Shown: in pieces, positions 4,558 through 64,000 of the stretch
How positions within the stretch are numbered: position 1 is the first letter of the stretch
How the letters are laid out: each line of letters starts with the position of its first letter
NCBI GenBank assembly: GCA_947085855.1
Contig: CAMTYB010000001.1
Coordinates: 85,788 to 149,787 of the forward strand
Direction: 5' to 3'
Length of the DNA: 64,000 nucleotides
Source: an uncultured Candidatus Saccharibacteria bacterium
GTDB lineage: Bacteria; Patescibacteriota; Saccharimonadia; Saccharimonadales; 2-12-FULL-41-12
Position numbers and translations under genes: made by a program
Notes under the pieces: generated by a model
Databases searched by the model: none
Told to the model about the DNA's origin: nothing
What the model saw: the letters and a program-made list of their open reading frames with translations, nothing else

Positions 4558-5586
4558 ATGACCGAAAATAAACAGCTTGATTTTTCTGCCTTTACACTAC
4601 CGCTCGCACAGCTCGGTATCTATCAGCCGCATTTAGGCGTTTCTACAAGGATAGCAAACTGGCTGTCGGTCTGGCTTATCCTGGCTTTAGCATTTATACC
4701 CTTCGGCACGTTTATGGTGGTTGGCGCTGCCTTTGGCACCGAGAACAACACTGGACTAACACTATATTTCCTAACCGGTTTTAATATGTTCGTTTTCATA
4801 GGACTGCTCTTTGCATGGCGACGCGGGCAGCGAGCCATAGCCAACGCCCGCATGAGTTACTTTGCTGCCACAAACAACTTTACGCATACCGAGCGGCAAC
4901 AAGAGCCATCGCTCAACGGCATGCCGTTCAATAATGGCAATAACCGTGAAGCTTATACTGTTGTCAGCGGCAGTCTGGCCGGTACACAATTTGAGGTCGG
5001 TAATTTCAGCTTCGATGAACGCAACACCGGAAAACGCAAGTCCAGTGAAAAAACCTACGGCTACGCCCGCTTGGAATTGCCACGCCGACTGCCACACATG
5101 GTGTTGGATAGTAAAAAGGACAACTTCCTGGGCATTACGAGTATGGCTGACGATATCTCAACCGACCAGAAATTAGTATTGGAAGGCGACTTTAATAATT
5201 ATTTCACCTTATTCTGCCCCAAAGAATACGAGCGAGACGCCTTGTACATTTTCACGCCCGACCTGATGGCGCTGCTTATTGATTATGGTAGTAAGTTCGA
5301 CATAGAGGTCGTGGATAACCAGCTATACCTGTATAGATACAACGGGTTTGATTTCACAAAGCCAGGTCATATTGATCTCATCTTTAAGGCGTTAGAAATG
5401 ATTGGTGCACGTATGCAAACTCGCTCGAGTCGCTATGCTGACGCCCGCGCCACTGGACGACATGTAGATATTGTTGCTCCCGAGGGACGACGTCTAAAAC
5501 GAGGCTACGTTTCTATTTTACTTACAATCTTATTCGTACTGATATACCTATTGGTCCAATTCACAACAAATGATTTTGGGTTGTAA
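4558..5586 (+). CDS. Membrane protein of unknown function (N-terminal and C-terminal TM segments)
   Basis: 342 aa ORF. Hydrophobic stretches WLSVWLILALAFIPFGTFMVVGAAF, LTLYFLTGFNMFVFIGLLFAW and, at the C terminus, YVSILLTILFVLIYLLVQF. Confidence 0.65.
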   Translation: MTENKQLDFSAFTLPLAQLGIYQPHLGVSTRIANWLSVWLILALAFIPFGTFMVVGAAFGTENNTGLTLYFLTGFNMFVFIGLLFAWRRGQRAIANARMSYFAATNNFTHTERQQEPSLNGMPFNNGNNREAYTVVSGSLAGTQFEVGNFSFDERNTGKRKSSEKTYGYARLELPRRLPHMVLDSKKDNFLGITSMADDISTDQKLVLEGDFNNYFTLFCPKEYERDALYIFTPDLMALLIDYGSKFDIEVVDNQLYLYRYNGFDFTKPGHIDLIFKALEMIGARMQTRSSRYADARATGRHVDIVAPEGRRLKRGYVSILLTILFVLIYLLVQFTTNDFGL

Positions 5587-5696
5587 AAACTAGATACGCT
5601 ATGGCGTGTGATAGTGTTTTGCTCATGCTTGCAAGCGTAGGGCGACGTGTGGTTAAGTAAAAAGTAAGTGTGGGAAGTATGTAACAGGAGGCTACC

Positions 5697-7142: not shown

Positions 7143-7160
7143 CTCTTTAGCACTACGTGA

Positions 7161-7874
7161 TTGCGTAATCGCGGTGCATATGTTCAAATGTCTATGATGA
7201 ATTTTCAACGTTTTGCACGATTGGAGGCACTGGACGGTACCGATGACACAGTTCTGGTAACTCCACAGGTTAGCCGAATCTACCAACCAAGCCTGAGCGA
7301 TGACCCCGAGGCGCCTGAGTTACTGGACCGTTTTCTTTGGAATCGATTGCCAGAGGTAAATCACCATCAGCGCCGTCTGATATTTGGCTATGCTCGAACC
7401 GTCAGCCCAGTAACAGCTAATTTTAACCCTCCTTTTACAGCCATCAATTGGGTTAACACTGCGCCAAATATATGGTCAGGTGCTAGCAAACTTTCATCTC
7501 TACATATCGCGCAACGCGCAGTATACGGTAATGAACGCACCACCGATACTCGATTACGCCCAGCTTATGCTGCTGCTCTTTTAATCGGTCGACAATACCT
7601 TGCGTACAAAGGAGGCGAGGCAAGTGGTGAAGCCTTGCCGCTTTACGGAATTGATACTATTCTGGGAGGTCTGGCAGCTCGAGCTGCGTATTGCTGGACA
7701 CTAGACAAAGGCGCGCATGACGCCAGGCAGACCATCAAAGATCAAGAACGTCTGGAGAGCTTCCAGCGCATCTTCGATTTTTCTGGCGCGCATGCCGAAC
7801 AGCCTAACAGCGCTTACCGGTCAAATGCTGCTACAGAGGTTTATCGGAACTTAGCCACAGAGCCTCAAACATAA
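7161..7874 (+). CDS. Hypothetical protein
   Basis: 237 aa ORF with no recognisable motif. The start may be the internal MSMMNF. The 3' end overlaps the convergent TrmB-like gene by 44 nt. Confidence 0.5.
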   Translation: MRNRGAYVQMSMMNFQRFARLEALDGTDDTVLVTPQVSRIYQPSLSDDPEAPELLDRFLWNRLPEVNHHQRRLIFGYARTVSPVTANFNPPFTAINWVNTAPNIWSGASKLSSLHIAQRAVYGNERTTDTRLRPAYAAALLIGRQYLAYKGGEASGEALPLYGIDTILGGLAARAAYCWTLDKGAHDARQTIKDQERLESFQRIFDFSGAHAEQPNSAYRSNAATEVYRNLATEPQT

Positions 7875-8613
7875 CATTCAACGTACTCACAATATCTTGC
7901 GAGTGCACCAGTACTGCCGACCGATGACTGAGTGGCGGTATAAACAGCGCTTTATCGTCAAACATAATCACGACAGCTTCAAATTTTCCTTTGAAATCAG
8001 CATGTAAGTAGCGTGGTTTGCGCAGCATAAGATCTTCTAGCGAAAGCTGTGGTTGGTTTTTTCCGTCTGATTCCCAAAGTGTGCGAGCATTAATTTTGCG
8101 AGATCGGCGCGTCTTCATGAAATATGCCGCATAGTCTTGATCTATCTGATTAAAGAAATTATCACGTGGCGCAATAATATTCCATTGCCGAGAAGAACAA
8201 TAAAGTGCCTTCTCAATGGCCAGTTTTACACCTTCCAGGCCATCAAATTTTTCGATCTGTGTCACCTGCACGTAGTCACTGGAGGTAGGAAAAAGATGCT
8301 CCAACTCGAGTACCTGGCGCTTATGCGTCTCTAACTGTGCCTGGCGCGATGAAAGCACTCGCTCCAAGTCCTTGGGCGGCAGCATTTGATAGATAAGTCT
8401 GCCCAATACTTTGCCTTCAGTTAGAAAACCCTTTTGCTTGAGTGTGCCGAGAGCATGATAGGCAGTTGTACGGTTGATGCCTGTCTGTTGTACCAAAAAA
8501 TTAACCGACGCCTCTTGAGTTTTAAGACCGGCTAAATAGAGCTTCTGCTCGGTTTCACTCAGGTCCATTGCCGACAGCAGTGACGTTATTTGTGAATCAG
8601 TTTTTAAAGTCAT
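7831..8613 (-). CDS. TrmB-family transcriptional regulator
   Basis: N-terminal winged HTH LSETEQKLYLAGLKTQEASVNFLVQQTGINRTTAYHALGTLKQKGFLTE, followed by a ~170 aa effector-type domain. Confidence 0.75.
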   Translation of the reverse strand: MTLKTDSQITSLLSAMDLSETEQKLYLAGLKTQEASVNFLVQQTGINRTTAYHALGTLKQKGFLTEGKVLGRLIYQMLPPKDLERVLSSRQAQLETHKRQVLELEHLFPTSSDYVQVTQIEKFDGLEGVKLAIEKALYCSSRQWNIIAPRDNFFNQIDQDYAAYFMKTRRSRKINARTLWESDGKNQPQLSLEDLMLRKPRYLHADFKGKFEAVVIMFDDKALFIPPLSHRSAVLVHSQDIVSTLNVMFEALWLSSDKPL

Positions 8614-11317: not shown

Positions 11318-11399
11318 GATCTGTACAACTCCTTATTGGACCGATCATACCATGACCACCAACTTTTCATAAATCCTAGCTACAATATCGTTACAAAGG

Positions 11400-52519: not shown

Positions 52520-52594
52520 TCCGGGGTAGCTCAGCGGTAGAGCGGGTGGCTGTTAACCACTAGGTCGAAGGTTCGAATCCTTTCCCCGGAGCCA
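52520..52594 (+). tRNA. tRNA-Asn (anticodon GUU), CCA encoded
   Basis: Manual cloverleaf: acceptor TCCGGGG/CCCCGGA, D arm GCTCAGCGGTAGAGC, anticodon stem GGTGG/CCACT with loop CTGTTAA, T arm GAAGGTTCGAATCCTTT, discriminator G, then CCA. Confidence 0.9.
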
Positions 52595-52601
52595 ATGTAC
52601 T

Positions 52602-52632
52602 CACTTCGCAACAGCGGAGTGTTTTGTTTTTT
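52602..52632 (+). terminator. Rho-independent terminator after tRNA-Asn
   Basis: CACTTCGC-AACA-GCGGAGTG followed by TTTTGTTTTTT. Confidence 0.75.
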
Positions 52633-52867
52633 GCTAGGTTTATATACGAGCACTAAACTCTTGAAGCCTTCTATTGACAGGGTCGAGATTAGTCGAGCTG
52701 ACATACATAAACTACATACAACACACGGCATTCCAGCAGGCATGGTTCGTGAAGCCTGTATTAGAAATGGTGTTTTATTCCCAGAAAGAGAGTATCTCAG
52801 CGCCCAACGAGATCACGCGCAGCGGTCCTAATTCATATCATGTTAATGCAACTGATATAGTAATTGT

Positions 52868-53701
52868 ATGAAAAGCGTGCATTTCTTAAATGGCCAGCTT
52901 GTCACAGAGGACCATTTATTGATATCACCCCGTGACTTGGGATACTCGCGCGGTTATGCCGCCTTTGAGTTTATGATTACCTCAGATGGTCAACCGTTTA
53001 TGATGGACAGGCACATAGACAGGCTCTTTGATTCTTGTCAGACTATCTCGCTGAATGTGCCTTGGTCAAAACAACAGGTCGCCAACTGGGTACAACAAAT
53101 CATTGAGGCAAATGAGCTGCGCAACGAAGATATGGTTATGCGCATTATTATTTCTGGCGGATCATCCGGAACACTTACGCCGGCGAAGACACCTACCATT
53201 GTTATCATCGTCGAAGCCCGAATGACATGTCCTCCGGAAGATTATACGAATGGAGTCCGTATTTTACTCACTGAATTCGATCGATACGAACCCCAGGCTA
53301 AGACAACGAACTATGTGCAGGCAATTCGTGTAATGAATACTGCCCCGCGTGATGTTGATGAAATTATTTACTTCTCCAACAATATGGTGCAAGAAGGCAC
53401 GCGGTGCAATATATTCGCGGTGATAAACGGTATACTAACCACACCTAAAACAAGGATGTTAGAAGGCATCACACGCGGCATCATACTAAAGGATTTAGAA
53501 TTAACCACTCAGACCGAATCTCGAGACTTTACTGTTCAGGAACTACTCAGCGCACCCGAGGTATTTATTACCGCCACAGGCAAAGAAGTCATGCCAGTCA
53601 CTAAAATAAATGACGCGCTCGTAGGGGACGGCGCAGTAGGCGACATTACTAAAGAAGTTATGTCCAAATTCAAGAATTTCTTTGATTCGTACAACCGCTG
53701 A
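52868..53701 (+). CDS. Class IV (fold type IV) PLP-dependent aminotransferase (BCAT/D-amino-acid aminotransferase/ADC lyase family)
   Basis: GYSRGYAAFEFM, the Lys-containing PQAKTTNY, EGTRCNIFAV and MLEGITRG are the characteristic family blocks. Confidence 0.8.
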   Translation: MKSVHFLNGQLVTEDHLLISPRDLGYSRGYAAFEFMITSDGQPFMMDRHIDRLFDSCQTISLNVPWSKQQVANWVQQIIEANELRNEDMVMRIIISGGSSGTLTPAKTPTIVIIVEARMTCPPEDYTNGVRILLTEFDRYEPQAKTTNYVQAIRVMNTAPRDVDEIIYFSNNMVQEGTRCNIFAVINGILTTPKTRMLEGITRGIILKDLELTTQTESRDFTVQELLSAPEVFITATGKEVMPVTKINDALVGDGAVGDITKEVMSKFKNFFDSYNR

Positions 53702-54517
53702 CTAGCTCCACAAAGACAACGTGCCACCTTGCTGCGACATGAAGGTGGTTAAGCCCAATCGTGGTCTGTCTGATTTGATCTCATCGACCTGATGAAAATT
53801 GCGAGTTTTGAATACCACTAAATCACCTTCTGATGGTAGTACCGAAGCATAGGGTGTGTCACCCAAAAAGCCTTCGGTAAATCCGAACGTACCCTTTTCT
53901 ACATAATCACGGTTGTAACGTTCGTCTTCTGGAGTCCAGGGGCGATCATATATGTTTAACTCTCCGCCTGCTGCTGGCATTTGAAGGTACAATACGAGGC
54001 CAAATTGCTCATCTGCATTAGCGACACTCCAGCCAGGAAGTTGTTTTGGAGCATAATCAAAGTGCAACGTACTTTTTGCACCCATAGCCCGAATAAGGCC
54101 TGCAAAGTATCGGGCTTCTGCTAGCTCGGACTCTGTTGCTATTTTTGTATCAAACCCATGCCCAAATAACTCAAGTATTTTACTGATAGGACTCTGGGTG
54201 CCTTCAAATATTTCATCTCGATCTTCCTCGGCTGCCGGCGTTGCGTCAAAGTACTTTTTCTTGCCGTCAGGTTCGTGGCTAAATCCAGTAGCGTTAATGC
54301 CGATTCTTCCTTGTTCGTTTGTTTTGTTGGCATACCAGGCTATTGCTTTGTCTTCCATATTAGCTTTGATTACGGCTAATTCTTGCTCACCCAAAAAGTG
54401 TCCGATTTTAATAGCGGCAATTTCATTCCTTGCTAGCTCGGGTAACAGCGCGCACGCTTCTGCCGAGTTATCTGGACCTAACTGTAATACATCCCATTGA
54501 TTTTCTTTGCTCGCCAT
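53702..54517 (-). CDS. Putative Fe(II)/2-oxoglutarate-dependent oxygenase-like protein
   Basis: The candidate facial triad is H-x-D in TLHFDYA plus a distal His in TRNFHQV. An RLGLTTF stretch follows (R-x-S/T-like 2OG anchor). This is pattern-level evidence only. Confidence 0.5.
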   Translation of the reverse strand: MASKENQWDVLQLGPDNSAEACALLPELARNEIAAIKIGHFLGEQELAVIKANMEDKAIAWYANKTNEQGRIGINATGFSHEPDGKKKYFDATPAAEEDRDEIFEGTQSPISKILELFGHGFDTKIATESELAEARYFAGLIRAMGAKSTLHFDYAPKQLPGWSVANADEQFGLVLYLQMPAAGGELNIYDRPWTPEDERYNRDYVEKGTFGFTEGFLGDTPYASVLPSEGDLVVFKTRNFHQVDEIKSDRPRLGLTTFMSQQGGTLSLWS

Positions 54518-54639
54518 ATACGCTCCAATATAGTTTGATACATAGCCTGAATGATTTTATTGTAACATAATTGCGAATTGTCAAATGACACATTTTCGTA
54601 ATAGCATACGAAATGTGTATTATGATATAAGATAACTCC

Positions 54640-56091
54640 ATGAAAACTGTTAATGTACTCCTCGTTGGCGTTGGCCCCCATGCTAGGCGTATTTATGTTC
54701 CTGCGTTATTTAAGTTTGCATCAGATCTTCCGGTCCGCTTAGTTGCAGCCGTGGACTTAAAACGCCAAAAAGACACCATTGACACATACCTCCAAAAGCA
54801 AGGATATGAACTAGAGATGCTGTATCTTGATTCTTTTGATGCGACAGCCGTCATTCCCGATCACGCCAGAGCGATACTTGACGCGCTAGTCAAGAAGTTT
54901 GATATCCAAGGAGTGGTCATCTCCACGGAACCTACCGTTCATAAGGCATACGCTGAATGGGCCCTCGGCAATGGGCTGAACATTCTGATGGATAAACCTA
55001 TTTCGGCTAGAAAAGCGATTAGTGTTGACCATGCGCAAGCTAGTGGGTTGATCGATGACTATAACGAGCTTTTAGACCTCTACAAAGCACATCAATCTGA
55101 CAAATCAATTCTTTTTTCTATAAACGTCCAAAGACGATACGACCATGGCTTTGACAAGGTTAAAGAATTAATTGCTGAAACCACACAAAAATTTAATGTA
55201 CCAATTACCTCAATGCAAGTTATGCATGCCGATGGTTCATGGAGATTCCCAAAAGAGATACTGACACAAGAATCTCATGGTCTTTCTGATGGTTTTGGGA
55301 AAGTGTCACATAGTGGCTACCATTTGTTCGATATGGCGTGGCAGTTATATAAATCTAGCCTTGTGCCCGAAAAGCAACCGGATGGCATGGAGATTTTTTC
55401 TTCTGCTTTCAATCCCACAGGACTTGATGTTTGCATCAATGAAAACGATTACATTAGGTATTTTGGAGATGACTTTGAGCGAACGGGCCTTTCTTCCCAG
55501 CAATATCTAGAAACGGTTGCCGACTATGGTGAGATGGATTCGTTTAATGTCATCCGACTAATGAAGCAGGGAATTAATATTTGTAATATTTCTGTGAATT
55601 TACTTCACAGCAGTTTTTCAAGACGTTCTTGGGCTACACCAAATACCGATTTTTATAAGGGTAACGGACGAGTAAAACATCAGCAATTTATAATTCAACA
55701 AGGCCCGTTTCAGTGTGTTCAGATTCATAATTACCAATCCAAGCATGAACATGACATAGATAATTCTAAGGAGTTTGGCGTGGGTGGCAATAACCACTTT
55801 GATATTTACGTATTTCGTAATGTTGGCATGTATGGCTACGGCGAGGCCTTCACTAAAATATCTTCTCTAGACCTAGAACAACAAGCTGACGCGCCTGGGC
55901 TTACCATCGAAAATGCCAAATACCGTATTATCCGTGAGTTTATCGAGTTTATGCTCGGAAACATTCCATTACAAGATGCGAGATCCAACATCGACACCCA
56001 TGCAGTACCGGTAAAGATACTGAGTGGCGTATGTCAGTCTAACGCCAATATGCATACCGATCGTAATCCGCTCATTCGTATATCACTATGA
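54640..56091 (+). CDS. Gfo/Idh/MocA-like NAD(P)-dependent oxidoreductase with an extended C-terminal domain
   Basis: N-terminal Rossmann pattern VNVLLVGVGPHARRIYVPAL. TEPTVHKAYAEWALGNGLNILMDKP matches the family EKP block. Confidence 0.65.
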   Translation: MKTVNVLLVGVGPHARRIYVPALFKFASDLPVRLVAAVDLKRQKDTIDTYLQKQGYELEMLYLDSFDATAVIPDHARAILDALVKKFDIQGVVISTEPTVHKAYAEWALGNGLNILMDKPISARKAISVDHAQASGLIDDYNELLDLYKAHQSDKSILFSINVQRRYDHGFDKVKELIAETTQKFNVPITSMQVMHADGSWRFPKEILTQESHGLSDGFGKVSHSGYHLFDMAWQLYKSSLVPEKQPDGMEIFSSAFNPTGLDVCINENDYIRYFGDDFERTGLSSQQYLETVADYGEMDSFNVIRLMKQGINICNISVNLLHSSFSRRSWATPNTDFYKGNGRVKHQQFIIQQGPFQCVQIHNYQSKHEHDIDNSKEFGVGGNNHFDIYVFRNVGMYGYGEAFTKISSLDLEQQADAPGLTIENAKYRIIREFIEFMLGNIPLQDARSNIDTHAVPVKILSGVCQSNANMHTDRNPLIRISL

Positions 56092-56738
56092 GCGGAACAA
56101 TATACTTGATGGGCGGCGGAGAACTTAGAGACGGTGATACCCAGCTAATTGACGAGGACATACTGTCTTGGGCACCAAAAGGTTCTACATTTGTTTTCTT
56201 TGGGTTCGCTTCACAAGATAGTACCGACTATGCCGACACCGTCAGGTCTGTATATGGAAACAGATACACCGTAGTAGTGCCTACAGAAGCAAAAGGGAGA
56301 GATTTTGCGATTGACGCTATAAAGTCGGCTGCTATTATCTACTTTGGCGGCGGTAATACTGAGGAATTGTTGCGACTATTTGCCGACTGGGGCCTTCTAG
56401 AGTATTTACGGGTTGCCGTTGGTCGAGGGGTGCATATTGCGGGAATGAGCGCAGGCGCACAGGCGTTATCTACGTGGTATGTGCATGAGGGTAACGATAT
56501 TTTTGAACTTCGTAAAGGTTGGGATATTGTCCCCGTTGGTGTCCTAGTACATGCTGATCGGACTTCGTTCGGTATGGCCAAGATACTATGGTCTGAACAT
56601 GGTATGACCGGCAAATATCCCTTTGTTGCAATTGGAGAAAGTGCCGCATGGCGCATGGGTACCTTAGAGGATACAAAGGTAGGTTTGGGTAATATTTGGA
56701 CAATAGCTGTCAGTGCTAAAGGGCCTAATCGAAGCTAA
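56088..56738 (+). CDS. Peptidase S51/type-1 glutamine-amidotransferase-like protein (dipeptidase E/cyanophycinase family)
   Basis: IYLMGGGE, IYFGGGNTEELL and the nucleophile block IAGMSAGAQ. The start overlaps the upstream stop (ATGA). Confidence 0.7.
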   Translation: MSGTIYLMGGGELRDGDTQLIDEDILSWAPKGSTFVFFGFASQDSTDYADTVRSVYGNRYTVVVPTEAKGRDFAIDAIKSAAIIYFGGGNTEELLRLFADWGLLEYLRVAVGRGVHIAGMSAGAQALSTWYVHEGNDIFELRKGWDIVPVGVLVHADRTSFGMAKILWSEHGMTGKYPFVAIGESAAWRMGTLEDTKVGLGNIWTIAVSAKGPNRS

Positions 56739-56813
56739 GCGCACAACAGCTTAGTATAGTTACCTATTCGTGATATTATAGAATAACTTCATCATATTTA
56801 CTAGTTTAGGTTT

Positions 56814-57485
56814 ATGAAGATTGAATTTGTAATGAGTGAAGATATAAATAACATATTTCGAAATGTTAAAGCTGAAACGCAGTGCCCATTTGCTAAGTCA
56901 GCTACTATCACATTTGCACGTTCGATTGAAGCTGAATTTACTGTACCCGAAACCGCACAGCAACTTTATGAAGATATCGCCACGTATGTCCAAGAAGGTA
57001 TTGCCACAGCACCAGATGGCATAGCAGTAGCTCTGCCCAATAATGTTATTGGAGATGATTTTATATCCTTAACTTCAGGCTTTAAATCTCTTTACCACGC
57101 TCTAAAAATAGAAGATGGATCTAACGAAGAAGCTATAGCTACCGAGAACATTGATGATTCGGACTGGCAGCTAACGATAGTCGGACAACGTTTATTTACG
57201 ATTGTTTTTAGCTCATTATATCCCGCGGACAATCCTCGTCATATCCATGAAGCCAACACTACATTTGTATTTTTTCAACCTGTACAAAGTTTTAACACAC
57301 GAATACCATTCGATAAGGACAGCGCAGAATTCAAGAGACTGAAAGCGAACATTCGAGCTCGTTTTACTAAAGCGGGACTGGCGTACGATGGAGCCATCAA
57401 TGACGACCCACGTGAAGCCGCAAAATATCTGTCACCACCCCATTTGGGCATGCAAGCAGTACAGTGGTGGAAAGGCGATAGTTAA
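56814..57485 (+). CDS. YqcI/YcgG-family protein
   Basis: N-terminal CPFAK motif. The C-terminal block LFTIVFSSLYPADNPRHIHEANTTFVFFQPVQSF resembles the family's conserved core. Recognition is by memory of the family pattern only. Confidence 0.6.
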   Translation: MKIEFVMSEDINNIFRNVKAETQCPFAKSATITFARSIEAEFTVPETAQQLYEDIATYVQEGIATAPDGIAVALPNNVIGDDFISLTSGFKSLYHALKIEDGSNEEAIATENIDDSDWQLTIVGQRLFTIVFSSLYPADNPRHIHEANTTFVFFQPVQSFNTRIPFDKDSAEFKRLKANIRARFTKAGLAYDGAINDDPREAAKYLSPPHLGMQAVQWWKGDS

Positions 57486-57488
57486 TAC

Positions 57489-58589
57489 ATGCAATCTATA
57501 GAATCTTCGTTTCTTGAATATCATCATGATAATGGTTTCGTGACACATGAATCTTTTCCGCTCGTCATTGATGATCCCACGGTTTTGTTTACCAATGCCA
57601 CCATTACTCCGTTCAAGCCGATGTTTGCAGGTGAGACGGAATTTTCTAATTTTGCCCTCGTTCAAAAATGCCTTCGCCTAGGTGGTACTGGCGGCAATGT
57701 TAACACGGCTCGTTTGAATACAAATTACACCTCACTGTTCAATATGCTTGGCAGCGGTTTCTTTAATGTGCATCACGATAAAGCGGTAGACTATTTTGTT
57801 GATATGCTAGGTGCTGTTGGACTGGAGCGGCGCAATTTACTCTTCTCGTCAATTGGTGGTCATGCCTTGGACGCATCGTTAAAATCTTCGTCGCTCGATC
57901 CGTCTCAGATTCGTAGTATGGATCCCGAAACATTGCAGCACGAGTGGAGCTTTGGGGAGGGCGACCTACACGGAATCGGGATAATAGCATGGTTTAATGC
58001 AGATGGTTACGATCAGACTACAGCGCTATCTGACTGCTTGCAGATCGGCAGGATCGTGCATATTGATGGCGTTTCAGAAAATGGATCGGTAAACCGGTTT
58101 GAACATACTGCCTTTGACGTGGGCTTGGGCTTGGGCAGGGTTGAACAAGCTCTGACTGGCGAAAGTGAATACGCCATGATGCCATTGAGAAAACTCTCGG
58201 AGCAATTTAAACGCTCCTTTGAAAACATCTCTGACGAGGACGCTCATTACATGGCAAATCTTTGTCGCATAACTGACGAGCTGACTGCGGAAGGCGTAAT
58301 GCCAGGCAATAAAAAGCATGCTTATGTACTTAGGAAAGTTATTCGCTCGCTTATTGAGGAAGCTTGGTTGCAGTCCGGAAGTTTTGTGGACGTCGAAGAC
58401 GTATTAGGCCATTTCATTGAAGAGGCTCAGTTTAAACCTAGTGTGAAGGCAGCGCTATCAAGCGAACAAGATGCTTTGCGTCGCATACTCTCTCAAGTAG
58501 AAGATAGGCGTAAAAAGCACCCTGATATGACGCTCAGCGACTTACATTCAACCTTTGGCATTAAGCCCAGTCTGCTTAGTCTACTGTAA
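57489..58589 (+). CDS. Truncated, divergent alanyl-tRNA synthetase paralogue (catalytic core only; no editing or C-Ala domains)
   Basis: It aligns by eye to the AlaRS N terminus. FLEYHHDNGFVTHESFPLVIDDPTVLFTNATITPFKPMFAGE corresponds to F..FF..KGH....SSL.P..DPTLLFTNAGMNQFK. QKCLRLGG corresponds to QRCVRAGG, FNMLGSGFF to FEMLGNFSFG and DVGLGLGRVEQAL to DTGMGLERI. ELTAEGVMPGNKKHAYVLRKVIR corresponds to [22 protein letters not shown]. It is 366 aa versus about 870 aa for a full AlaRS. Confidence 0.8.
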   Translation: MQSIESSFLEYHHDNGFVTHESFPLVIDDPTVLFTNATITPFKPMFAGETEFSNFALVQKCLRLGGTGGNVNTARLNTNYTSLFNMLGSGFFNVHHDKAVDYFVDMLGAVGLERRNLLFSSIGGHALDASLKSSSLDPSQIRSMDPETLQHEWSFGEGDLHGIGIIAWFNADGYDQTTALSDCLQIGRIVHIDGVSENGSVNRFEHTAFDVGLGLGRVEQALTGESEYAMMPLRKLSEQFKRSFENISDEDAHYMANLCRITDELTAEGVMPGNKKHAYVLRKVIRSLIEEAWLQSGSFVDVEDVLGHFIEEAQFKPSVKAALSSEQDALRRILSQVEDRRKKHPDMTLSDLHSTFGIKPSLLSLL

Positions 58590-59202
58590 GCTCCGTCGCA
58601 ATGCGGCCCACAACTCGTGCGAGTTCATTGGCGTACGGCTGCTCGCCAATAAAGTGTGCTGCGCCAGCTACTTCAATCAGTTCCGCGTTAGCGATAACGC
58701 TTGCAAGTTGACCACAACGAGCAACTAGGTACGGATGCAGTTCGCACTCTTTTTCACCAAATAATATAGTTGTAGGTATCCTTAGATCATTAACCAACGA
58801 AGAAGCATCCAGCGCAGAAAAAAACTTTAGCTCCTGCACTCGTTTTTGACCAATACGCTGGGCAAGTGCAGGGTCTAAATTTGTATTAATGTCCTCTGAG
58901 AACAGAGCCGAAGGAGAGCACAGCACCAAATGTCGCAAAGGAATTTGATCTACAATACTCAGAGCCGCCAAGGCACCCAAGGAATGCCCGATTAGGATTC
59001 CATTGTATTCACAGTGCTGCAATTGCTCAAGTGCACGCTGGCCAAAATCCTGCACACTCTGTTCTCCCCAGCCGCTGGTAACGCCACTGAGCAGCGCCCC
59101 TTGTGCTGCCATTGCATGTTTTAACTCATCCAAATCAGGATCGGTAAATGTCTTATCAGGGCTGTAACCAGGTACCAAAAAAGCTGCTACCATATCTGCC
59201 AT
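58576..59202 (-). CDS. Small serine hydrolase (alpha/beta fold, YdeN/RBBP9-like size)
   Basis: GHSLGALAALS nucleophile elbow and a C-terminal GAAHF block containing His. Its 3' end overlaps the AlaRS-like gene by 14 nt (convergent). Confidence 0.7.
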   Translation of the reverse strand: MADMVAAFLVPGYSPDKTFTDPDLDELKHAMAAQGALLSGVTSGWGEQSVQDFGQRALEQLQHCEYNGILIGHSLGALAALSIVDQIPLRHLVLCSPSALFSEDINTNLDPALAQRIGQKRVQELKFFSALDASSLVNDLRIPTTILFGEKECELHPYLVARCGQLASVIANAELIEVAGAAHFIGEQPYANELARVVGRIATELTVD

Positions 59203-59317
59203 ACTTTACTGTACATATAAATATTTTGCGACTAAAATATCACGCTTACAGTAGAGTGAGTGAAATTAGAATTTATTGGTACTTCGTAGTTGCTGAGTGC
59301 GTCCACTAGTGGGAGCC

Positions 59318-59359
59318 ATGAGGCTAGATGGTCAAGTTTACTTGATCGCCTAGCCTCAT
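59318..59359. other. Perfect 10-bp inverted repeat ATGAGGCTAG / CTAGCCTCAT with a nested inner stem (TCAAG/CTTGA)
   Basis: Direct reading. It lies in the 370-nt non-coding stretch at the island end. Confidence 0.6.
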
Positions 59360-59400
59360 TTGCGTTTCTGGGAAGGATGAGAACCGCTCTGCGTAGCAGT

Positions 59401-59491
59401 AGGTTCGGCGTAGCGAAAGCTCTCGCAGAAATTTACTTCGAGAAAACTTGAGCGGAGGAGGCGACAGACAATACCCTTTCCCCGTAGCCAA
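59401..59491 (+). repeat. Island-boundary repeat, copy C; its end duplicates the 3' end of tRNA-Asn
   Basis: AGGTTCGGCG (59401-59410) is identical to the reverse complement of the 10-mer in copies A and B. GCGGAGGAGGCGAC is close to GCGGAGAAGCGAC in A and B. It ends cctttccccgtagccaa (59475-59491), matching 16 of 17 nt of 52579-52595. Confidence 0.75.
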
Positions 59492-59507
59492 GATAAAGCA
59501 GATAAAG

Positions 59508-59538
59508 TCAGAACTGAATTAACTGTTCTGGCTTTTGT
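59508..59538 (+). terminator. Rho-independent terminator
   Basis: CAGAAC-TGAATTAACT-GTTCTG followed by GCTTTTGT, directly after repeat copy C. Confidence 0.65.
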
Positions 59539-59587
59539 ATGTGCAGACTGTTAATGAAACTCCCGGTGGAGTTTGCGTTTATGCTCT

Positions 59588-59596
59588 TGCTATACT
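59588..59596 (+). promoter_or_regulatory. Extended -10 element TGCTATACT, 6 nt upstream of ATG 59603
   Basis: Direct reading. A leaderless start is implied. Confidence 0.4.
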
Positions 59597-59602
59597 TTAG
59601 TC

Positions 59603-59815
59603 ATGAAAGCCGGCGTATACAGACACAAACGACACCCCCAGGACTTATATCTTTTTATTGGTCTCGCCAGACATCATGAAACAAATGAAGAGTTCATTGT
59701 ATATGTTCCACTTAGAATAGAAAAAGATTGGGCGGGTACAGCACGAATGGCCTTGCGGACTGTTGAAGATTTTAATGAAACCTTCGAGTATGTAGCTGAG
59801 CGTCTTCCTGAATAA
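59603..59815 (+). CDS. DUF1653-like small protein
   Basis: MKAGVYRHKRHPQDLYLFIGLARHHETNEEFIVYVPL pattern (YRHYKG...Y.V..L..H.ET.E..V.Y). Confidence 0.65.
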   Translation: MKAGVYRHKRHPQDLYLFIGLARHHETNEEFIVYVPLRIEKDWAGTARMALRTVEDFNETFEYVAERLPE

Positions 59816-59845
59816 CTCTAAAACATAGCATGATAAAATTGCCAC

Positions 59846-60343
59846 ATGACAAAATTCACGCAAAAATATACCATTGTCCAATTCCTCGAAGAGATTGCAG
59901 ATGGTTACGAGTATTCCTCGAGCAACTGGCCGCTACACACTACTATTGCTGACACTTTTGCAGTTGATTGGGACAAGGATAATTCGCTTGCTAAGCTAGA
60001 AGCATGGCTGACTAAGCAAAGGGCGGTCACCACAAAAGCTGCAAACTTTGAGTTCTTTGGGCCCGAGAAGCAAACAAAAGTAACATTGCTTGAAATTAAT
60101 AAAGAACTTTTGCAACTTCATAATAGTGTCGTGGATCTACTCAAGAATGATGGGGCAGTTTTTAATGACCCCCAATTTACGGGAACAGGCTTTTTGCCAC
60201 ACGTAACAGTGCAGTCTCACGCACATTTAAAAAAAGGTGATTTAGTTACTTTTACGGGCTTGTCCTTGATAGATATGTTTCCAAATAGCGATCCCTACCA
60301 GCGCAAGGTGCTCAAAACCATGATGCTTCTTAATAGTTATTGA
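59846..60343 (+). CDS. 2H phosphoesterase superfamily protein (LigT/cyclic phosphodiesterase-like)
   Basis: Two H-x-T/S-x motifs at the expected spacing: PLHTTIA and PHVTVQS. Confidence 0.65.
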   Translation: MTKFTQKYTIVQFLEEIADGYEYSSSNWPLHTTIADTFAVDWDKDNSLAKLEAWLTKQRAVTTKAANFEFFGPEKQTKVTLLEINKELLQLHNSVVDLLKNDGAVFNDPQFTGTGFLPHVTVQSHAHLKKGDLVTFTGLSLIDMFPNSDPYQRKVLKTMMLLNSY

Positions 60344-60465
60344 TGCATAAGAAACCAAGAACTCAAGATACTCGAGGCATTTGCTGGCAATCTCTCAAAG
60401 TTCGTCAACTAAGGTGAGCGAAGCTGCCTGAGCAGCTTGCGGTCTTTATTTGGTATAGTAAACAC

Positions 60466-60897
60466 GTGCACATAAATCCCAAGCTAGAAGACGTGGACGA
60501 CTCGTTGTATCGTGTTGCGGTACGCGCGTTAGTTTTACACGATGACAAAATACTAGCCGTCAAAGAAGTTGACAGCCAGCAATGGTCAATACCTGGCGGC
60601 GGAGTCGATTACGGAGAAGACTTAAAAGCCGGTCTATTGCGGGAAATTGAAGAAGAACTTGGCATCTCCGCTGAATCTGTTTCGTCAGATTTTCAAATTA
60701 TTCACTATGATATCGGAAACATTGTTAATGGCGTTCCACGTATGAACATATTCTTTACAGTTTCCGTGCCAGAGGATCGCATCAAGACAACGTCTCACGT
60801 CGAAGAGTGGGGCTGGTTTACCAGAGATGAGTTCATGGAACTAGACACAAACCCTTCTCACGATAAAGCCGAACTTATTGAAGTTATCTTCAGCTAA
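60466..60897 (+). CDS. NUDIX hydrolase
   Basis: Nudix box GGGVDYGEDLKAGLLREIEEELGI. GTG start 6 nt after GGTATAGT. Confidence 0.85.
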   Translation: MHINPKLEDVDDSLYRVAVRALVLHDDKILAVKEVDSQQWSIPGGGVDYGEDLKAGLLREIEEELGISAESVSSDFQIIHYDIGNIVNGVPRMNIFFTVSVPEDRIKTTSHVEEWGWFTRDEFMELDTNPSHDKAELIEVIFS

Positions 60898-60945
60898 CAG
60901 ATGTCTCTTTTGATTTATTGTAATTTATATGTTTTAATTTGAGAT

Positions 60946-61686
60946 ATGCCAACCTATTTAACAGGTGAAACAGTCCTTGAAGCTCCGATCAATAATGTGA
61001 TCGTTTATCCTTACTGCTCTAACGTAGGCCTAGATCATGAAGGTGAATTAGAGACTTACTTAAGCATTATGTCTACTATGTCAATTGATGCAGGCATAGA
61101 ATTAGGCCTTCAGGATCAGAGCAGAAAGCTTACACTACCTGGCGAAACACCCTTTGAAGACCTGGCTAACACGACTGACTTGATGGGGGCACGAGCTACA
61201 CATGCAGGTATTGCGGAGGGAGCACTCGACAGACTTTACAGCCTAAATGATGGGCGCCCCCTTAACAATACGTACCTGCAGTCACAAGGTGTCAAAGAGC
61301 ATAACGACGATAAAAATGAAGATTTAGACAGCTCTGTTGTTGTTGCACTTGATTACCATATAGCAAGAGTATGTGGAGCAATGGCAGCTTTCCAAGCCGC
61401 TCCTCGATTCGCTGTAACTGTGGAGTCAATTCTACAGGCGCGTGGCATACACGATTACGATAAATACTTGCCAGTTATTGATGGTTTGCGACGTAGCGAG
61501 AAACTTGCAAAATTAATGACACCTAAAATCCTGGGCTTAGACAAGGGTCAAATACCTAATTTTGCAGTCGCTCGCAAGGGAGCGCGCATAGTCGACATCA
61601 CAGAAGAACCCAACGGTACGTTTGTCTTAGAGAATGATTTTGCCTCTGCAAAACGTGCTCGCCTAGAAGCTAAAGCAGTCATTTAA
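60946..61686 (+). CDS. Hypothetical protein
   Basis: 246 aa ORF with no motif recognised. Confidence 0.55.
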   Translation: MPTYLTGETVLEAPINNVIVYPYCSNVGLDHEGELETYLSIMSTMSIDAGIELGLQDQSRKLTLPGETPFEDLANTTDLMGARATHAGIAEGALDRLYSLNDGRPLNNTYLQSQGVKEHNDDKNEDLDSSVVVALDYHIARVCGAMAAFQAAPRFAVTVESILQARGIHDYDKYLPVIDGLRRSEKLAKLMTPKILGLDKGQIPNFAVARKGARIVDITEEPNGTFVLENDFASAKRARLEAKAVI

Positions 61687-61754
61687 ATAAACTGGTTATA
61701 CGACTTTTGTAGAGATGGTTTATTATTACCATAGACATAAGGAGTATTAGCAAA

Positions 61755-61994
61755 ATGGGTTTTCTTATCGTTCTTGGAGTCGCGTTATGGATATTTATCG
61801 CCTTTTGGCCAGCCATACTAGCAAAAAACAAGGGTTACAGTTTTATTTTATTCCTCGTATTATCGTGGTTCGTCTCATTTCTTATTACGCTGCTTGCAGT
61901 AGCATTATTGCGAGACAAAACAATGACCGAGGCAGACAGAAAAGCTGACCGGGAAGCCGAAGCTGCTCTTGCCAAAGAAGAAAAACAAGCTTAA
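61755..61994 (+). CDS. Small two-TM membrane protein
   Basis: 79 aa with SD AAGGAG upstream. Two hydrophobic helices and a charged C-terminal tail. Confidence 0.6.
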   Translation: MGFLIVLGVALWIFIAFWPAILAKNKGYSFILFLVLSWFVSFLITLLAVALLRDKTMTEADRKADREAEAALAKEEKQA

Positions 61995-62092
61995 ATACTT
62001 TAGATGACACCTGTTTGCTAAAACGACAGGAACGCGCAGTTTAACCCTGTGGTCTCATTCGATGCCAACCTCCCAGAATACTGGGCATAGAT

Positions 62093-62404
62093 TTACTTCG
62101 ACTTAGCTTGTCTACCAAGCACCCATTTAACAGATGGACTGATAGATTTATCGGTGCGATGAATGCAACCAATCCAGCAGCAGGGGCGGCGTTTACCTTC
62201 TTTTAGTTCTTTAACAGTTCTTTTGATGTGATCTGTTCGTGTCTTTGGCTGCTTAACAGTAATGTTCCAGCAAATCCACTCATTACGCGCCAGTGGAGTC
62301 AGGCCTTCCCATTTTTCTAGAGATGCCTTGTTGGCTACCAAGGCTTTTTTCAAGTCAGCAGGCATCTCATGTACAGTGCCGCCAGTTACTTGTGCGTTCG
62401 TCAT
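62093..62404 (-). CDS. YdeI/OmpD-associated family protein
   Basis: PADLKKALVANKASLEKWEGLTPLARNEWICWNITVKQPKTRTDHIKRTVKELKEGKRRPCCW is the typical family pattern. Confidence 0.7.
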   Translation of the reverse strand: MTNAQVTGGTVHEMPADLKKALVANKASLEKWEGLTPLARNEWICWNITVKQPKTRTDHIKRTVKELKEGKRRPCCWIGCIHRTDKSISPSVKWVLGRQAKSK

Positions 62405-62485
62405 GTATTTATTTTACCTCAGTGACCTCTCGTGAGCCAGTGTCGCATCTATACAAAGTCTTGTTTTTATGTTATTTTATTCTTA

Positions 62486-62749
62486 ATGAATAATCCGCAA
62501 GAAGTTGCACCGGAATACTTGGTAGGTAAGCCAACTCGCTACACAGCTCGAGCAATGGGAACATTCTTGGCTGGAACCGCAGTTTTAATGGAAGTATCTG
62601 GGATACAGGAGTTAATGGCCGGCAATCACGAAGCAGGCCAAGAGCTTATTGTTCAAGGCATAACACCGACAGGACTGGTAGCTGGATTCCTCATCTGGGC
62701 CTCATTTGCCAAGAAGTCAAACTCCACACAGAATAACCAAGATCAATAA
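62486..62749 (+). CDS. Small membrane protein, hypothetical
   Basis: The start was set at MNNPQEV. Two hydrophobic segments. Confidence 0.5.
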   Translation: MNNPQEVAPEYLVGKPTRYTARAMGTFLAGTAVLMEVSGIQELMAGNHEAGQELIVQGITPTGLVAGFLIWASFAKKSNSTQNNQDQ

Positions 62750-62750
62750 T

Positions 62751-63266
62751 ATGTTAATAATACCAAACGCTCACGTCATAGATTTTAATCCTGAAGTTCG
62801 CTTGCCGCTCATGGAGGCAGAGGCGCTGAATCAGCAGCGTCAGACTTCAGAGCAAGTCTACACCTCGATCGATCATCGGGATCACGATCACTACACGCAA
62901 AAGGCCGAACGAACACGAAGACAGCGCAACTTAAAAGTAGCCGGCTTTGCCGGATATTACGTCACAGTGGTTGGGGAATATACACTTGATATGGCCATTC
63001 TGACCCGATATCCCGCAGCGACTATAGCAGTCGGCATGACTGCTGGCTGGTTTTTTGGCGGTGTAGGCGAAGATAATCAACAGATAAAAGACCAGGAAGA
63101 CAAGGCTGTGCGATGCGCAGCCTACGAAGTAGAGAACGCCGAGTACGACAAAAGAGACCCTTCGGAATGGGCAGTAGAGTGCCTCGAAAGTGCCGGAGTT
63201 ACCGCCCATGAAGTACTTCATCCGATTATTGCTGCCGCCCAAAAAGAACAACCAATTCAGTCTTAA
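62751..63266 (+). CDS. Hypothetical protein
   Basis: The start was set at MLIIPNAH, 1 nt after the upstream stop. One central hydrophobic region. Confidence 0.5.
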   Translation: MLIIPNAHVIDFNPEVRLPLMEAEALNQQRQTSEQVYTSIDHRDHDHYTQKAERTRRQRNLKVAGFAGYYVTVVGEYTLDMAILTRYPAATIAVGMTAGWFFGGVGEDNQQIKDQEDKAVRCAAYEVENAEYDKRDPSEWAVECLESAGVTAHEVLHPIIAAAQKEQPIQS

Positions 63267-63279
63267 ATCAATAATACGA

Positions 63280-63304
63280 GCCGACAGACGTGTCGGCTTT
63301 TGTT
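63280..63304 (+). terminator. Rho-independent terminator
   Basis: GCCGACA-GACG-TGTCGGC followed by TTTTGTT. Confidence 0.8.
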
Positions 63305-63341
63305 ATGATTAAGGGACAAGAACATAGCGGAGGGATGGCAT

Positions 63342-64000
63342 ATGGCACAAAAAATAATACCTAATCTTTGGTTTGATGGCATCGCCAAGGAGGCAGCCGA
63401 ATTTTACGTAGCTGCTTTTGGTAACGGCAACATAGTAGATACCACGTACTATCCCAAAAGTGCCGAAGAAGGTCTGGCTGATTTTCAACTTAATCTTGCT
63501 GGCAAAGAATTAACTGTTGACTTCGAGATAGATGGGTATCGATTTACCAATATTAATGCGGGGTCTGAGTTTACGTTTAATCAGTCAATTTCATTTATGG
63601 TCAACTTTGACCCTTCACGAGACGAACAAGCCGAGCAACACCTCAACGAGCTCTGGAGTAAATTGATTGACGGCGGTACCGCCCTCATGGACTTGGGCGA
63701 ATATCCATATAGCAAGCGCTACGGTTGGGTGAAAGATAAATATGGCCTGACGTGGCAACTCATGTTGACCGATCCCGCCGGCGAGCCACGACCGTTCATC
63801 ATACCGTCATTACTTTTTTCTCAAGAGCAGGCCAACAAAGCCAGTGAAGCCATCGACTACTATATATCGGTGTTTAACGATGCCCAGCGTGGCACCGAGG
63901 CACGCTATCCAGAAGACACCGGCCCGGCCAAAGCTGGCTCATTAATGTTCGCCGATTTCAAACTCGAAAATCAATGGTTTACAGCTATGGACTCTGGTGT
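63342..64000 (+). CDS. Tandem PhnB-like/VOC-fold protein (3-demethylubiquinone-9 3-methyltransferase-domain family), 3' end runs off the window
   Basis: Absent from the ORF track because it has no stop in the window. Manual translation from ATG 63342 is open to the window end: MAQKIIPNLWFDGIAKEAAEFYVAAFGN...RYGWVKDKYGLTWQLML. A second copy of the same pattern then begins (IIPSLLFSQEQANKASEAIDYYISVF...). Confidence 0.7.
   Translation, partial: MAQKIIPNLWFDGIAKEAAEFYVAAFGNGNIVDTTYYPKSAEEGLADFQLNLAGKELTVDFEIDGYRFTNINAGSEFTFNQSISFMVNFDPSRDEQAEQHLNELWSKLIDGGTALMDLGEYPYSKRYGWVKDKYGLTWQLMLTDPAGEPRPFIIPSLLFSQEQANKASEAIDYYISVFNDAQRGTEARYPEDTGPAKAGSLMFADFKLENQWFTAMDSG

Follow-up and report, generated by a model that had tools for sequence, protein, structure and literature searches.

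What might an incomplete and divergent relative of alanyl-tRNA synthetase (AlaRS) be doing in a small gene island of an uncultured Candidatus Saccharibacteria bacterium? The question is raised by a 64,000-nucleotide stretch of contig CAMTYB010000001.1 (hereafter the window, to which all positions refer unless another locus is named), in which an initial annotation, made from the sequence alone, had seen a stand-alone AlaRS catalytic-core paralogue with altered substrate-pocket positions. The gene in question, which we call AlaL, occupies 57489..58589 on the plus strand and encodes a truncated, divergent AlaRS-like protein of 366 residues, composed of an aminoacylation domain and a helical tRNA-recognition domain. 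The island in which it lies measures 6.9 kb and has seven genes, AlaL being the sixth; the left end of the island lies at the 3' end of a tRNA-Asn gene. Judging from sequence comparisons, AlaL is a discrete AlaRS-derived family and no housekeeping alaS. As for its function, we tentatively propose an alanyl transferase similar to AcmF, an enzyme of the ascamycin pathway.

The gene itself is intact. Its open reading frame (ORF) begins with ATG, three nucleotides past the TAA of the upstream ORF 56814..57485 (...AGT TAA TAC ATG...), and contains 0 internal stops. The protein carries the AlaRS backbone blocks DPTVLFTNATITPFK (residues 29-43), QKCLRLGG (59-66), FNMLGSGFF (84-92), FDVGLGLGR (209-217) and GVMPGNKKHAYVLRKVIRS (269-287); all the blocks named in the initial annotation were found, and the substitutions it had read by eye (TNAGM to TNATI, GLER to GLGR and FSFGDY to GFFNVH) are correct. 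The resemblance it had seen is also statistically significant. Residues 4-289 match positions 2-309 of the 552-position Pfam profile tRNA-synt_2c (PF01411) with E=7e-24, and AlaRS catalytic fragments in the PDB match AlaL with E ~1e-16. An AlphaFold2 model built on 68 family members (predicted local distance difference test, pLDDT, 92.2; predicted template modelling score, pTM, 0.88) has the E. coli AlaRS catalytic fragment 3HXU as its top Foldseek match (E=5e-21, template modelling score, TM, 0.78). The Pfam match and the model, compared with 3HXU, show that the class IIc aminoacylation-domain fold is present. In the alignment AlaL spans E. coli AlaRS residues ~4-411 and ends just past the counterpart of the YDTYGFP motif; therefore, it holds most of the helical tRNA-recognition domain. 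The term catalytic core was thus apt for what is missing, as Pfam finds no editing domain (tRNA_SAD, PF07973) and the C-Ala domain is absent too, but not for what is present, which is more than a bare core. Nor does AlaL belong to the AlaX type: it matches PF01411 only, over the N-terminal aminoacylation region, with no homology to the editing domain.

AlaL stands far apart from alaS. It scores 73.6 bits against the curated alaS equivalog TIGR00344, the cut-off of which is 457.05, and 39.4 against NF002436, with a cut-off of 529. A word-indexed search of 5.8 billion clusters returned ~120 relatives of 360-390 residues; those with a named source came from Levybacteria, Saccharimonadales, Nomurabacteria or the "Patescibacteria group". 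Among 185,579 genomes, one per species, the family occurs in 18, nearly all of them Patescibacteria. An exhaustive profile search of 1.84 billion representatives yielded ~20 AlaL-family proteins (544-191 bits, at most 414 residues), and a score gap separates them from full-length AlaRS, which reached at most 180 bits. A search of 2.9 million viral contigs gave no relative. The AlaL family and a few intermediate short proteins split from canonical AlaRS in 100/100 bootstraps of a neighbour-joining tree, forming the distinct clade that the initial annotation had suggested looking for, and the subfamily of the window protein (subfamily A, which goes with cassette type A described below) received 100/100 support too. 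Across 68 family members with identities down to 28%, 31 alignment columns are invariant. These columns, the intact ORF, the discrete clade and a conserved cassette all speak, in agreement with the initial annotation, for a functional paralogue recruited to another reaction and not for a pseudogene.

The most trivial answer to our question would be that AlaL is a decaying, split or misassembled housekeeping alaS. Split AlaRS genes exist in some reduced genomes, and tblastn with E. coli AlaRS as the query found no second alaS homologue in the 64-kb window. However, the same length recurs in ~120 clusters, the family-specific substitutions are invariant, and the score remains far below the equivalog cut-off; more than 99.9% of species genomes lack the AlaL family altogether. 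In the Saccharibacteria contig L021, a canonical AlaRS of 623 residues with a tRNA_SAD domain coexists with the AlaL cassette beside it. Together with the second AlaRS-like genes of 29/57 loci (see below), this contradicts, for relatives of the window, the condition under which the initial annotation would have given up its view, namely that AlaL be the only alaS homologue. An identical AlaL in an identical gene arrangement on two independent assemblies (L030 and L031) excludes misassembly. We therefore regard this explanation as effectively refuted.

If AlaL is not an alaS, its active site should be the best guide to its chemistry. We use here the E. coli numbering for AlaRS positions and count residues of subfamily A over 88 sequences. 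In AlaRS, F90 of motif 2 (Phe) and R242 of motif 3 (Arg) sandwich the adenine, the motif-2 Arg R69 binds the alpha-phosphate and the carbonyl, D235 fixes the alpha-amino group, and V214 and W170 shape the methyl pocket (PMC12143591, PMC10123102). The AlaL counterparts are R63 (Arg69), F84 (Phe90), W153 (Trp170), V190 (Val214), D210 (Asp235) and R217 (Arg242), each invariant across subfamily A; only in distant AlaL clades does Glu alternate at the Asp235 position. By alignment, the part of the site that accommodates L-alanine and adenosine is thus intact, and the retention of these six contacts contradicts the initial idea of an amino-acid pocket remodelled for a new substrate.

What did change are other residues. 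Family-wide, the diagnostic changes are G42T, M43I/V and E183I/T, and subfamily A has in addition fixed E209Q (85/88), N212R (88/88), G176D and C178H. The window protein has T38-I39, I166, Q185 and R188 at Gly42-Met43, Glu183, Glu209 and Asn212, respectively. As the canonical set for these positions we took E. coli AlaRS, a 605-residue AlaRS of the candidate phyla radiation (CPR) and the mini-AlaRS proteins (AlaL2) encoded beside many AlaL genes; the five residues are all kept in E. coli AlaRS and AlaL2, and also in P0120, which is uninformative at W211. The changes from GLER to GLGR and from FSFGDY to GFFNVH turned out to be subfamily-level or variable. An Arg new to AlaL, R75 at E. coli G81, is invariant in subfamily A. 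The helical motif PGNKKHAYVLRKxIRS is among the best-conserved stretches of AlaL, with P272, G273, K275, L281, R282, K283 and R286 conserved, and corresponds to the AlaRS segment holding Asn303, a reader of the G3:U70 pair. Asn303 itself is represented by N274, the position being N in 61/88 and K in 23/88 sequences of subfamily A.

Active N-terminal AlaRS fragments are instructive for comparison. The E. coli 441/461N and A. aeolicus 453 fragments (3HXU, 1RIQ) have the same fold (TM 0.78), a similar span and the same alanine and adenine contacts. AlaL, in contrast, is only 20-24% identical to them, has E183, E209, N212, G42 and M43 replaced, ends ~30-50 residues earlier and is encoded, as a natural stand-alone protein, by a mobile island.

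The company that AlaL keeps provides the second line of evidence. We pooled loci from exact look-ups, a genome scan and a metagenome scan, and clustered the neighbouring ORFs de novo in 85 loci, 57 of which had enough flank (at least 3 kb) to serve as the denominator for partner counts. "Stand-alone" proved to be a fitting description of the domain architecture but not of the genomic context, as the gene always lies in a cassette. A serine peptidase of family S51 or S66 is encoded within 8 kb of AlaL in 52/57 loci, and a second AlaRS-like gene (AlaL2) accompanies it in 29/57. Cassette type A (19 loci, including the window) comprises genes for an aminotransferase, an oxygenase, a dehydrogenase, an S51 peptidase and AlaL, to which a YqcI-like gene (10 loci), an alpha/beta-hydrolase (4), an aminoglycoside phosphotransferase (APH)-type kinase (3) and a second AlaRS-like gene (5) may be added. 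Type B (14 loci) combines AlaL with an S66 peptidase, a pyridoxal phosphate (PLP)-dependent decarboxylase of the ornithine/diaminopimelate (Orn/DAP) type, one or more methyltransferases and two dCTP-deaminase-like proteins; YqcI or a second AlaRS-like gene is found in some of these loci. In type C (21 loci), AlaL is followed by an AlaRS fragment of 430-440 residues, while the other strand encodes one or more methyltransferases, an S-adenosylmethionine (AdoMet) decarboxylase, an S66 peptidase and an AsnRS core. The latter is a catalytic core lacking the anticodon-binding domain and scores 209 bits with the asnS model; in L062 (where the core and its neighbours fill 4620-8385), and also in L074, L064 and L070, it is neighboured by an HD-domain protein as well.

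The AlaL2 proteins differ sharply from AlaL. They are near-canonical, have 430-440 residues and score 298-463 bits on Pfam, one member reaching the TIGR00344 cut-off; they keep G42, M43, E183, E209, N212, D235 and R242, lack the editing and C-Ala domains, and are placed with canonical AlaRS in the tree. Where the two genes stand in tandem (L062 2055-3281 / 3278-4585; L024, L027, L028, L060, L064 and others), a 4-nt overlap is frequent. AlaL2 may be a dedicated supplier of Ala-tRNA or a toxin-resistant AlaRS. No other ligase (ATP-grasp, adenylation domain, MccB or nonribosomal peptide synthetase, NRPS) was found in cassette types A-C; with no other former of amide or ester bonds in the three architectures, AlaL is the only candidate.

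In the literature searched, AcmF (2024) was the only AlaRS catalytic-domain paralogue with a role outside translation that turned up. AcmF comes from Streptomyces sp. 80H647, takes part in ascamycin biosynthesis and consists of the aminoacylation and tRNA-recognition domains only (PMC12945691; Zheng et al., ACS Catal 2024, cited there). It has lost the residues for ATP binding and alanine activation, carries Gln219 at the catalytic Asn and keeps the motif-2 Arg as Arg93; Glu232, an essential acid, stands at the Asp235 position, and the nucleoside sulfamate sits in the place of the adenylate (PMC12945691). The enzyme transfers alanine from Ala-tRNA(Ala) supplied by AcmD, the AlaRS of the cluster, and the alpha/beta-hydrolase AcmE takes the alanine off again; ascamycin is the alanylated form of dealanylascamycin and has a much narrower toxicity (PMC12945691).

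AlaL resembles AcmF in several ways. It has the same truncation, with R188 at the catalytic Asn, D210 as the acid and R63 as the motif-2 Arg (these positions were matched by way of AcmF's published description). In the window it has putative hydrolases for neighbours, namely an alpha/beta-hydrolase and an S51 peptidase, and in many related loci a canonical AlaRS fragment recalls AcmD. Unlike AcmF, which belongs to Actinomycetota, AlaL is found in Patescibacteria; it is not accompanied by genes of a nucleoside-sulfamate pathway but by those of a hydroxylase, a dehydrogenase, a transaminase and an S51 peptidase, it keeps Asp at position 235 and Asn at position 303, and the window island has no second AlaRS-like gene. 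Ten representatives at the edge of or near the AlaL clade all came from metagenome sources (JGI, Logan, ENA), which hints at an origin independent of AcmF.

Such a likeness, in anatomy as well as in the kinds of partners across loci, induces us to propose that AlaL is an AcmF-like transferase that would place alanine onto the amine of a small molecule, with Ala-tRNA as the probable donor. The proposal is tentative, and we attach to it nearly as much credence as doubt. What the comparisons show is the fold, the discrete clade, the pattern of residues, the conserved cassettes and the build of the island, while the donor, the acceptor, the product, the direction of the reaction and its biological role are what we infer from here on. 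AlaL would still bind the L-alanyl group and an adenosine-type moiety, the residues for ATP-Mg chemistry having presumably been lost, and its most likely donor would be Ala-tRNA(Ala), as for AcmF. The acceptor amine would be made by a sequence leading from C-H to C-OH, C=O and finally C-NH2, in which the WelO5-like hydroxylase might take the first step, the Gfo/Idh/MocA dehydrogenase the second and the fold-IV transaminase the third. The scaffold would probably be a sugar- or nucleoside-like ring and, less likely, an amino acid; the adenine sandwich retained in AlaL makes a nucleoside-type acceptor attractive, though unproven. In some variants, the window included, the YqcI/YcgG haem enzyme might add an N-hydroxylation, and the S51 peptidase and the alpha/beta-hydrolase may remove the aminoacyl group for the sake of immunity, activation or recycling. 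A precedent for the last two steps toward the amine is found in puromycin biosynthesis, where a Gfo/Idh/MocA dehydrogenase and a transaminase (Pur10/Pur4) turn a ring hydroxyl of a nucleotide into an amine (PMC11641026).

A number of observations weigh against the proposal. The sequence cannot tell an aminoacyl-tRNA donor from ATP plus an amino acid, and the likeness of AlaL to AcmF is read from a published description of the latter. The basal AlaL clades retain E209, N212 and E241; the presence of E209 and N212 there means that the loss of adenylation may not be family-wide. Near-canonical CPR sequences vary at the KHND loop, R85 and W211, so these positions are not diagnostic of lost ATP use, and we rejected changes in the KHND loop and R85 as a proof of lost ATP binding. 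The second reader of G3:U70, Asp400, is replaced by Ser354 in AlaL and by A, S or G over the subfamily. Cassettes of an amino-acid type, with serine hydroxymethyltransferase (SHMT)-like, thiamine diphosphate (TPP)-dependent decarboxylase and alanine-racemase genes, contain relatives of the dehydrogenase too, so that the acceptor may also be an amino acid. Finally, the window island has neither a mini-AlaRS nor an exporter gene, which weakens the idea of an antibiotic producer.

Several of these points recur when the alternatives are weighed. AlaL might be an ATP-dependent ligase that adenylates alanine, or a non-proteinogenic amino acid made by the cassette, and passes it to an amine or hydroxyl with no tRNA involved; the acceptor could be a 3'-amino-nucleoside mimicking A76, giving a puromycin-like product, or one of the EpmA/PoxA or carrier-protein-ligase type. 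This explanation comes closest to the initial annotation, and, while we consider it unlikely, it deserves to be taken seriously. Both the Arg of motif 2 and that of motif 3 are invariant, as is the Phe that stacks on the adenine, E209, N212 and E241 survive in the basal clades, and R75 could compensate for the lost R85; besides, the linkage of dehydrogenase and WelO5-like relatives to a class I LysRS paralogue (L098/L099) suggests amino-acid tailoring with a dedicated synthetase. On the other hand, E183 is lost family-wide, E209Q and N212R are fixed in subfamily A, and the alanine-shaping Val and Trp are unchanged, which would leave no room for a larger, tailored amino acid. An ATP-dependent AlaL would also be redundant in the many loci where a canonical Ala-activating enzyme is translationally coupled to it, and its strongly conserved tRNA-recognition helix would be left with no role. 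Quite improbable, in our opinion, is that the island serves resistance or detoxification, with AlaL alanylating or decoying an imported toxin of the aminoacyl-adenylate or nucleoside type and the S51/S66 and alpha/beta-hydrolases, in some loci together with the APH kinase, destroying or modifying it. Against it speaks that the trio of oxygenase, dehydrogenase and transaminase in cassette A has the look of tailoring chemistry, as have, in cassette B, the decarboxylase, the methyltransferases and the two dCTP-deaminase-like proteins and, in cassette C, the AdoMet decarboxylase and the AsnRS-like core; besides, a decoy would not need an invariant catalytic-site geometry. Still, neither an exporter nor any enzyme that would obviously form a scaffold is encoded in the 6.9-kb island, three cassette-A loci have an APH-type kinase gene after AlaL, and the island is mobile and patchy, as resistance islands are. 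The S66 peptidases, moreover, belong to the family of MccF, the microcin C immunity peptidase. Alanylation also fits with protection insofar as ascamycin is far narrower in toxicity than dealanylascamycin (PMC12945691).

We find it very improbable that AlaL acts on the cell envelope as an analogue of FemX/MurM or MprF, using Ala-tRNA to alanylate a lipid or a peptidoglycan precursor, with the LD-carboxypeptidase-like S66 and the S51 peptidases and a D-amino-acid-type transaminase working on the same stem peptides. Such a role would agree with muramoyltetrapeptide carboxypeptidase and diaminopimelate decarboxylase being the strongest matches of the S66 proteins and of the cassette-B decarboxylase, respectively, with the transaminase being as near to D-amino-acid transaminases as to other fold-IV enzymes, and with L098, where relatives of the dehydrogenase and the oxygenase are tied to LysX-like and LPG-synthase genes. 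However, a core envelope function is hardly to be expected of a gene that is present in <0.01% of species genomes and sits on mobile islands, and the dCTP-deaminase-like pair, the methyltransferases, the AdoMet decarboxylase and the AsnRS-like core are foreign to peptidoglycan chemistry.

Returning to the AcmF-like proposal, we note that cassettes B and C recall another known system. Their S66 peptidase (the MccF family), Orn/DAP-type PLP decarboxylase (the N-terminal part of MccE) and methyltransferase-fold proteins (MccD) resemble accessory and immunity proteins of microcin C. In cassette C the gene set is reminiscent of those for aminopropylation and immunity in microcin C systems, with MccB lacking. 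The island has no gene for MccB (ThiF-like), and neither cassette B nor cassette C has one; a gene for MccA was not seen either, small peptide ORFs not having been searched. The systems differ in that AlaL, joined in cassette C by the AsnRS-like core, stands in the place of the enzyme that forms the nucleotide-peptide bond, and in that the window, being of type A, has S51, while S66 occurs in cassettes B and C only and aminopropylation genes are absent from type A. Some AlaL loci carry a YqcI/YcgG gene, and so does the mcc operon of Yersinia pseudotuberculosis (PMC4010828).

Synthetase cores have been recruited beyond tRNA acylation elsewhere as well. SbzA, an IleRS-like protein dependent on aminoacyl-tRNA, is one such case, from another synthetase family and another gene context. 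EpmA/PoxA, AsnA, HisZ and the amino-acid:carrier-protein ligases are synthetase cores that acylate targets other than tRNA, none of them derived from AlaRS. Against this background it is conceivable, although we think it rather doubtful, that in mobile cassettes of the CPR, which would form a class not described before, the synthetase-derived proteins (AlaL, mini-AlaRS and the AsnRS core) replace NRPS, ATP-grasp enzymes or MccB and build "Trojan-horse" antimetabolites of the alanyl-masked or aminoacyl-nucleoside/nucleotide kind, with the S51 and S66 peptidases providing immunity or activation.

We turn now to the remaining genes of the window island. The first of them (52868..53701, plus strand) encodes a class IV (fold-type IV) aminotransferase of 277 residues (Pfam Aminotran_4, E=9e-39), which is conserved in cassette A and lies, among PDB entries, at the same distance from branched-chain, D-amino-acid and (R)-amine transaminases. 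It is followed on the minus strand (53702..54517) by a WelO5-like Fe(II)/2-oxoglutarate oxygenase of 271 residues (Pfam WelO5, E=7e-18), which in the PDB matched WelO5-type proteins only, at ~1e-5. Residues H152-x-D154, H242 and R253 of this protein are invariant or have at most one exception in 20 homologues, and the triad H152-x-D154...H242 marks the oxygenase as a hydroxylase type; we rejected a halogenase, as the triad is His-x-Asp and no His-x-Gly/Ala is found.

The next gene (54640..56091, plus strand) encodes a Gfo/Idh/MocA-type NAD(P) dehydrogenase of 483 residues (Pfam GFO_IDH_MocA) with the GxGxxA and DKP motifs. Of this protein, sequence and profile searches of the PDB matched the Rossmann segment only. 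Its AlphaFold2 model (pLDDT 88.6) has dehydrogenases of sugar or cyclitol ring hydroxyls for structural neighbours: glucuronide-3-dehydrogenase, scyllo-inositol dehydrogenase and GenD2 of the gentamicin pathway. GenD2 works with a partner transaminase, GenS2, and the pair is a further example, beside Pur10/Pur4, of turning a ring hydroxyl into an amine. A relative of the dehydrogenase, 53% identical, follows a class I LysRS paralogue at a distance of 5 nt in L098 (3570-11949) and in L099, and the L098 locus also carries genes for a WelO5-like oxygenase, a 2-hydroxyacid dehydrogenase, an 824-residue LysX-like class II LysRS and an LPG_synthase_C protein. These two loci represent a second linkage of the dehydrogenase-oxygenase pair to synthetase-type enzymes.

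The 3' end of the dehydrogenase gene overlaps by 4 nt with the start of the gene for the peptidase S51 homologue (56088..56738, plus strand; 216 residues; Pfam Peptidase_S51, E=9e-18), a member of the cyanophycinase/aspartyl-dipeptidase family. A profile search matched it to structures of cyanophycinase and of PepE (aspartyl dipeptidase), and S121, H155 and E184 are invariant. Then follows the YqcI/YcgG-like gene (56814..57485, plus strand; 223 residues), an optional member present in 10/19 cassette-A loci. The YqcI/YcgG family is one of thiolate-haem N-hydroxylases. The gene product scores 24.5 bits with Pfam YqcI_YcgG, below the cut-off of 27, and its profile had no match in the PDB; it is 28% identical to the protein of L009 9186-9833, for which a PF08892 match is recorded. 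Cys24 in the TQCPFAK motif is invariant, and the corresponding Cys44 of the guanidine N-hydroxylase AglA is the haem thiolate ligand. Past AlaL, the last island gene (58576..59202, minus strand) encodes an alpha/beta-hydrolase of 208 residues (Pfam Abhydrolase_6); the gene is convergent with AlaL, the two sharing 14 nt. All of 5 homologues keep the G-H-S74-L-G elbow and H183, and such a hydrolase also follows the cassette in L015 and L016.

How did such a cassette arrive in the genome? The tRNA-Asn(GTT) gene (52520..52594, plus strand; ARAGORN; Rfam 71.2 bits) forms with its 3' end the left, att-like boundary of the island. Both a repeat search and an anchored search found a direct repeat here, the first copy of which, CCTTTCCCCGGAGCCAA (52579..52595, plus strand), comprises the last 16 nt of the tRNA gene and the next base. 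The second copy, CCTTTCCCCGTAGCCAA (59475..59491, plus strand), is 16/17 identical to the first and forms the right boundary of the island, immediately past the gene for the hydrolase. The five-gene core of L019 is likewise enclosed, by a 21-nt exact repeat of the 3' end of tRNA-Tyr (5322-5342 and 11330-11350). The tRNA genes adjoining the cassette in different genomes are those for Asn, His, Ser, Tyr and Gln, and large serine recombinases are encoded close to it in six loci. The repeats of tRNA 3' ends, the differing tRNAs and the nearby recombinases together indicate that the cassette is mobile and targets tRNA genes. No integrase is encoded inside the 6.9-kb island, and the cassette is presumably moved by an enzyme encoded elsewhere. 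We also considered the flanking tRNA as a dedicated part of the pathway and rejected this: the varying identity of the tRNAs and the repetition of their 3' ends across the cassette mark them as integration sites.

Several further observations concern the history of the island. In L018 (5611-17371), the whole cassette and tRNA-His occur twice in tandem, with coordinates identical modulo 6252 bp, representing either a true duplication of the island or an assembly artefact. When the window is compared with L003, the aminotransferase, oxygenase, dehydrogenase and S51 peptidase are 78-89% identical and AlaL 68%; with L013, the same four are 60-74% identical, the YqcI-like protein 83% and AlaL 70%. 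Whether the YqcI gene precedes or follows AlaL goes with the same division, and this, together with the identities, suggests that the right-hand module was exchanged by recombination. Three cassette-A contigs (L015, L017 and L018) are labelled as metagenome-assembled genomes of Dormiibacterota, Pseudomonadales and Bdellovibrionales; their proteins are 52-88% identical to those of the window, and the labels point to mis-binning or recent horizontal transfer. The G+C content falls from 0.481 (window 1-52519) to 0.441 (52596-64000) and is low also past the right repeat of the island, where the DNA (encoding a 2H phosphoesterase, a NUDIX protein and small ORFs) may be accessory too. The NUDIX gene (60466-60897) was considered as the Pur7-type member of a puromycin-like set and discarded, since it lies, like the 2H-phosphoesterase gene (59846-60343), outside the island and is not conserved beside the cassette. 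PADLOC gave only a generic model of a 2-oxoglutarate oxygenase, and we rejected a role in anti-phage defence. The search of the island for T-boxes and riboswitches found nothing, even at E up to 1, and neither promoter nor terminator scans exceeded the shuffled expectation.

Overall, AlaL is a second, apparently independent lineage of AlaRS catalytic domains outside translation, essentially confined to CPR bacteria and present in three conserved gene contexts, with sequence clusters numbering more than 100. As a kind, synthetase-like transferases of secondary metabolism were already known (AcmF, SbzA), and AlaL is a separate, undescribed lineage on tRNA-targeting islands. It represents a natural experiment in the repurposing of a class II synthetase site, in which the contacts with alanine and adenine were kept while E183, E209 and N212 were replaced. 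Enzymes of the AlaL type are also candidates for the chemo-enzymatic alanylation of amines, and the island, with 6.9 kb, is of clonable size and may be the first CPR-specific small-molecule pathway. Should it be a resistance element instead, it would indicate which toxins of the aminoacyl-adenylate type these epibionts meet in nature. If, however, the cassettes do make antimetabolites, they would provide a lineage-specific bioactive route in organisms thought to be almost devoid of secondary metabolism, with products that could be used against their bacterial hosts or to manipulate them.

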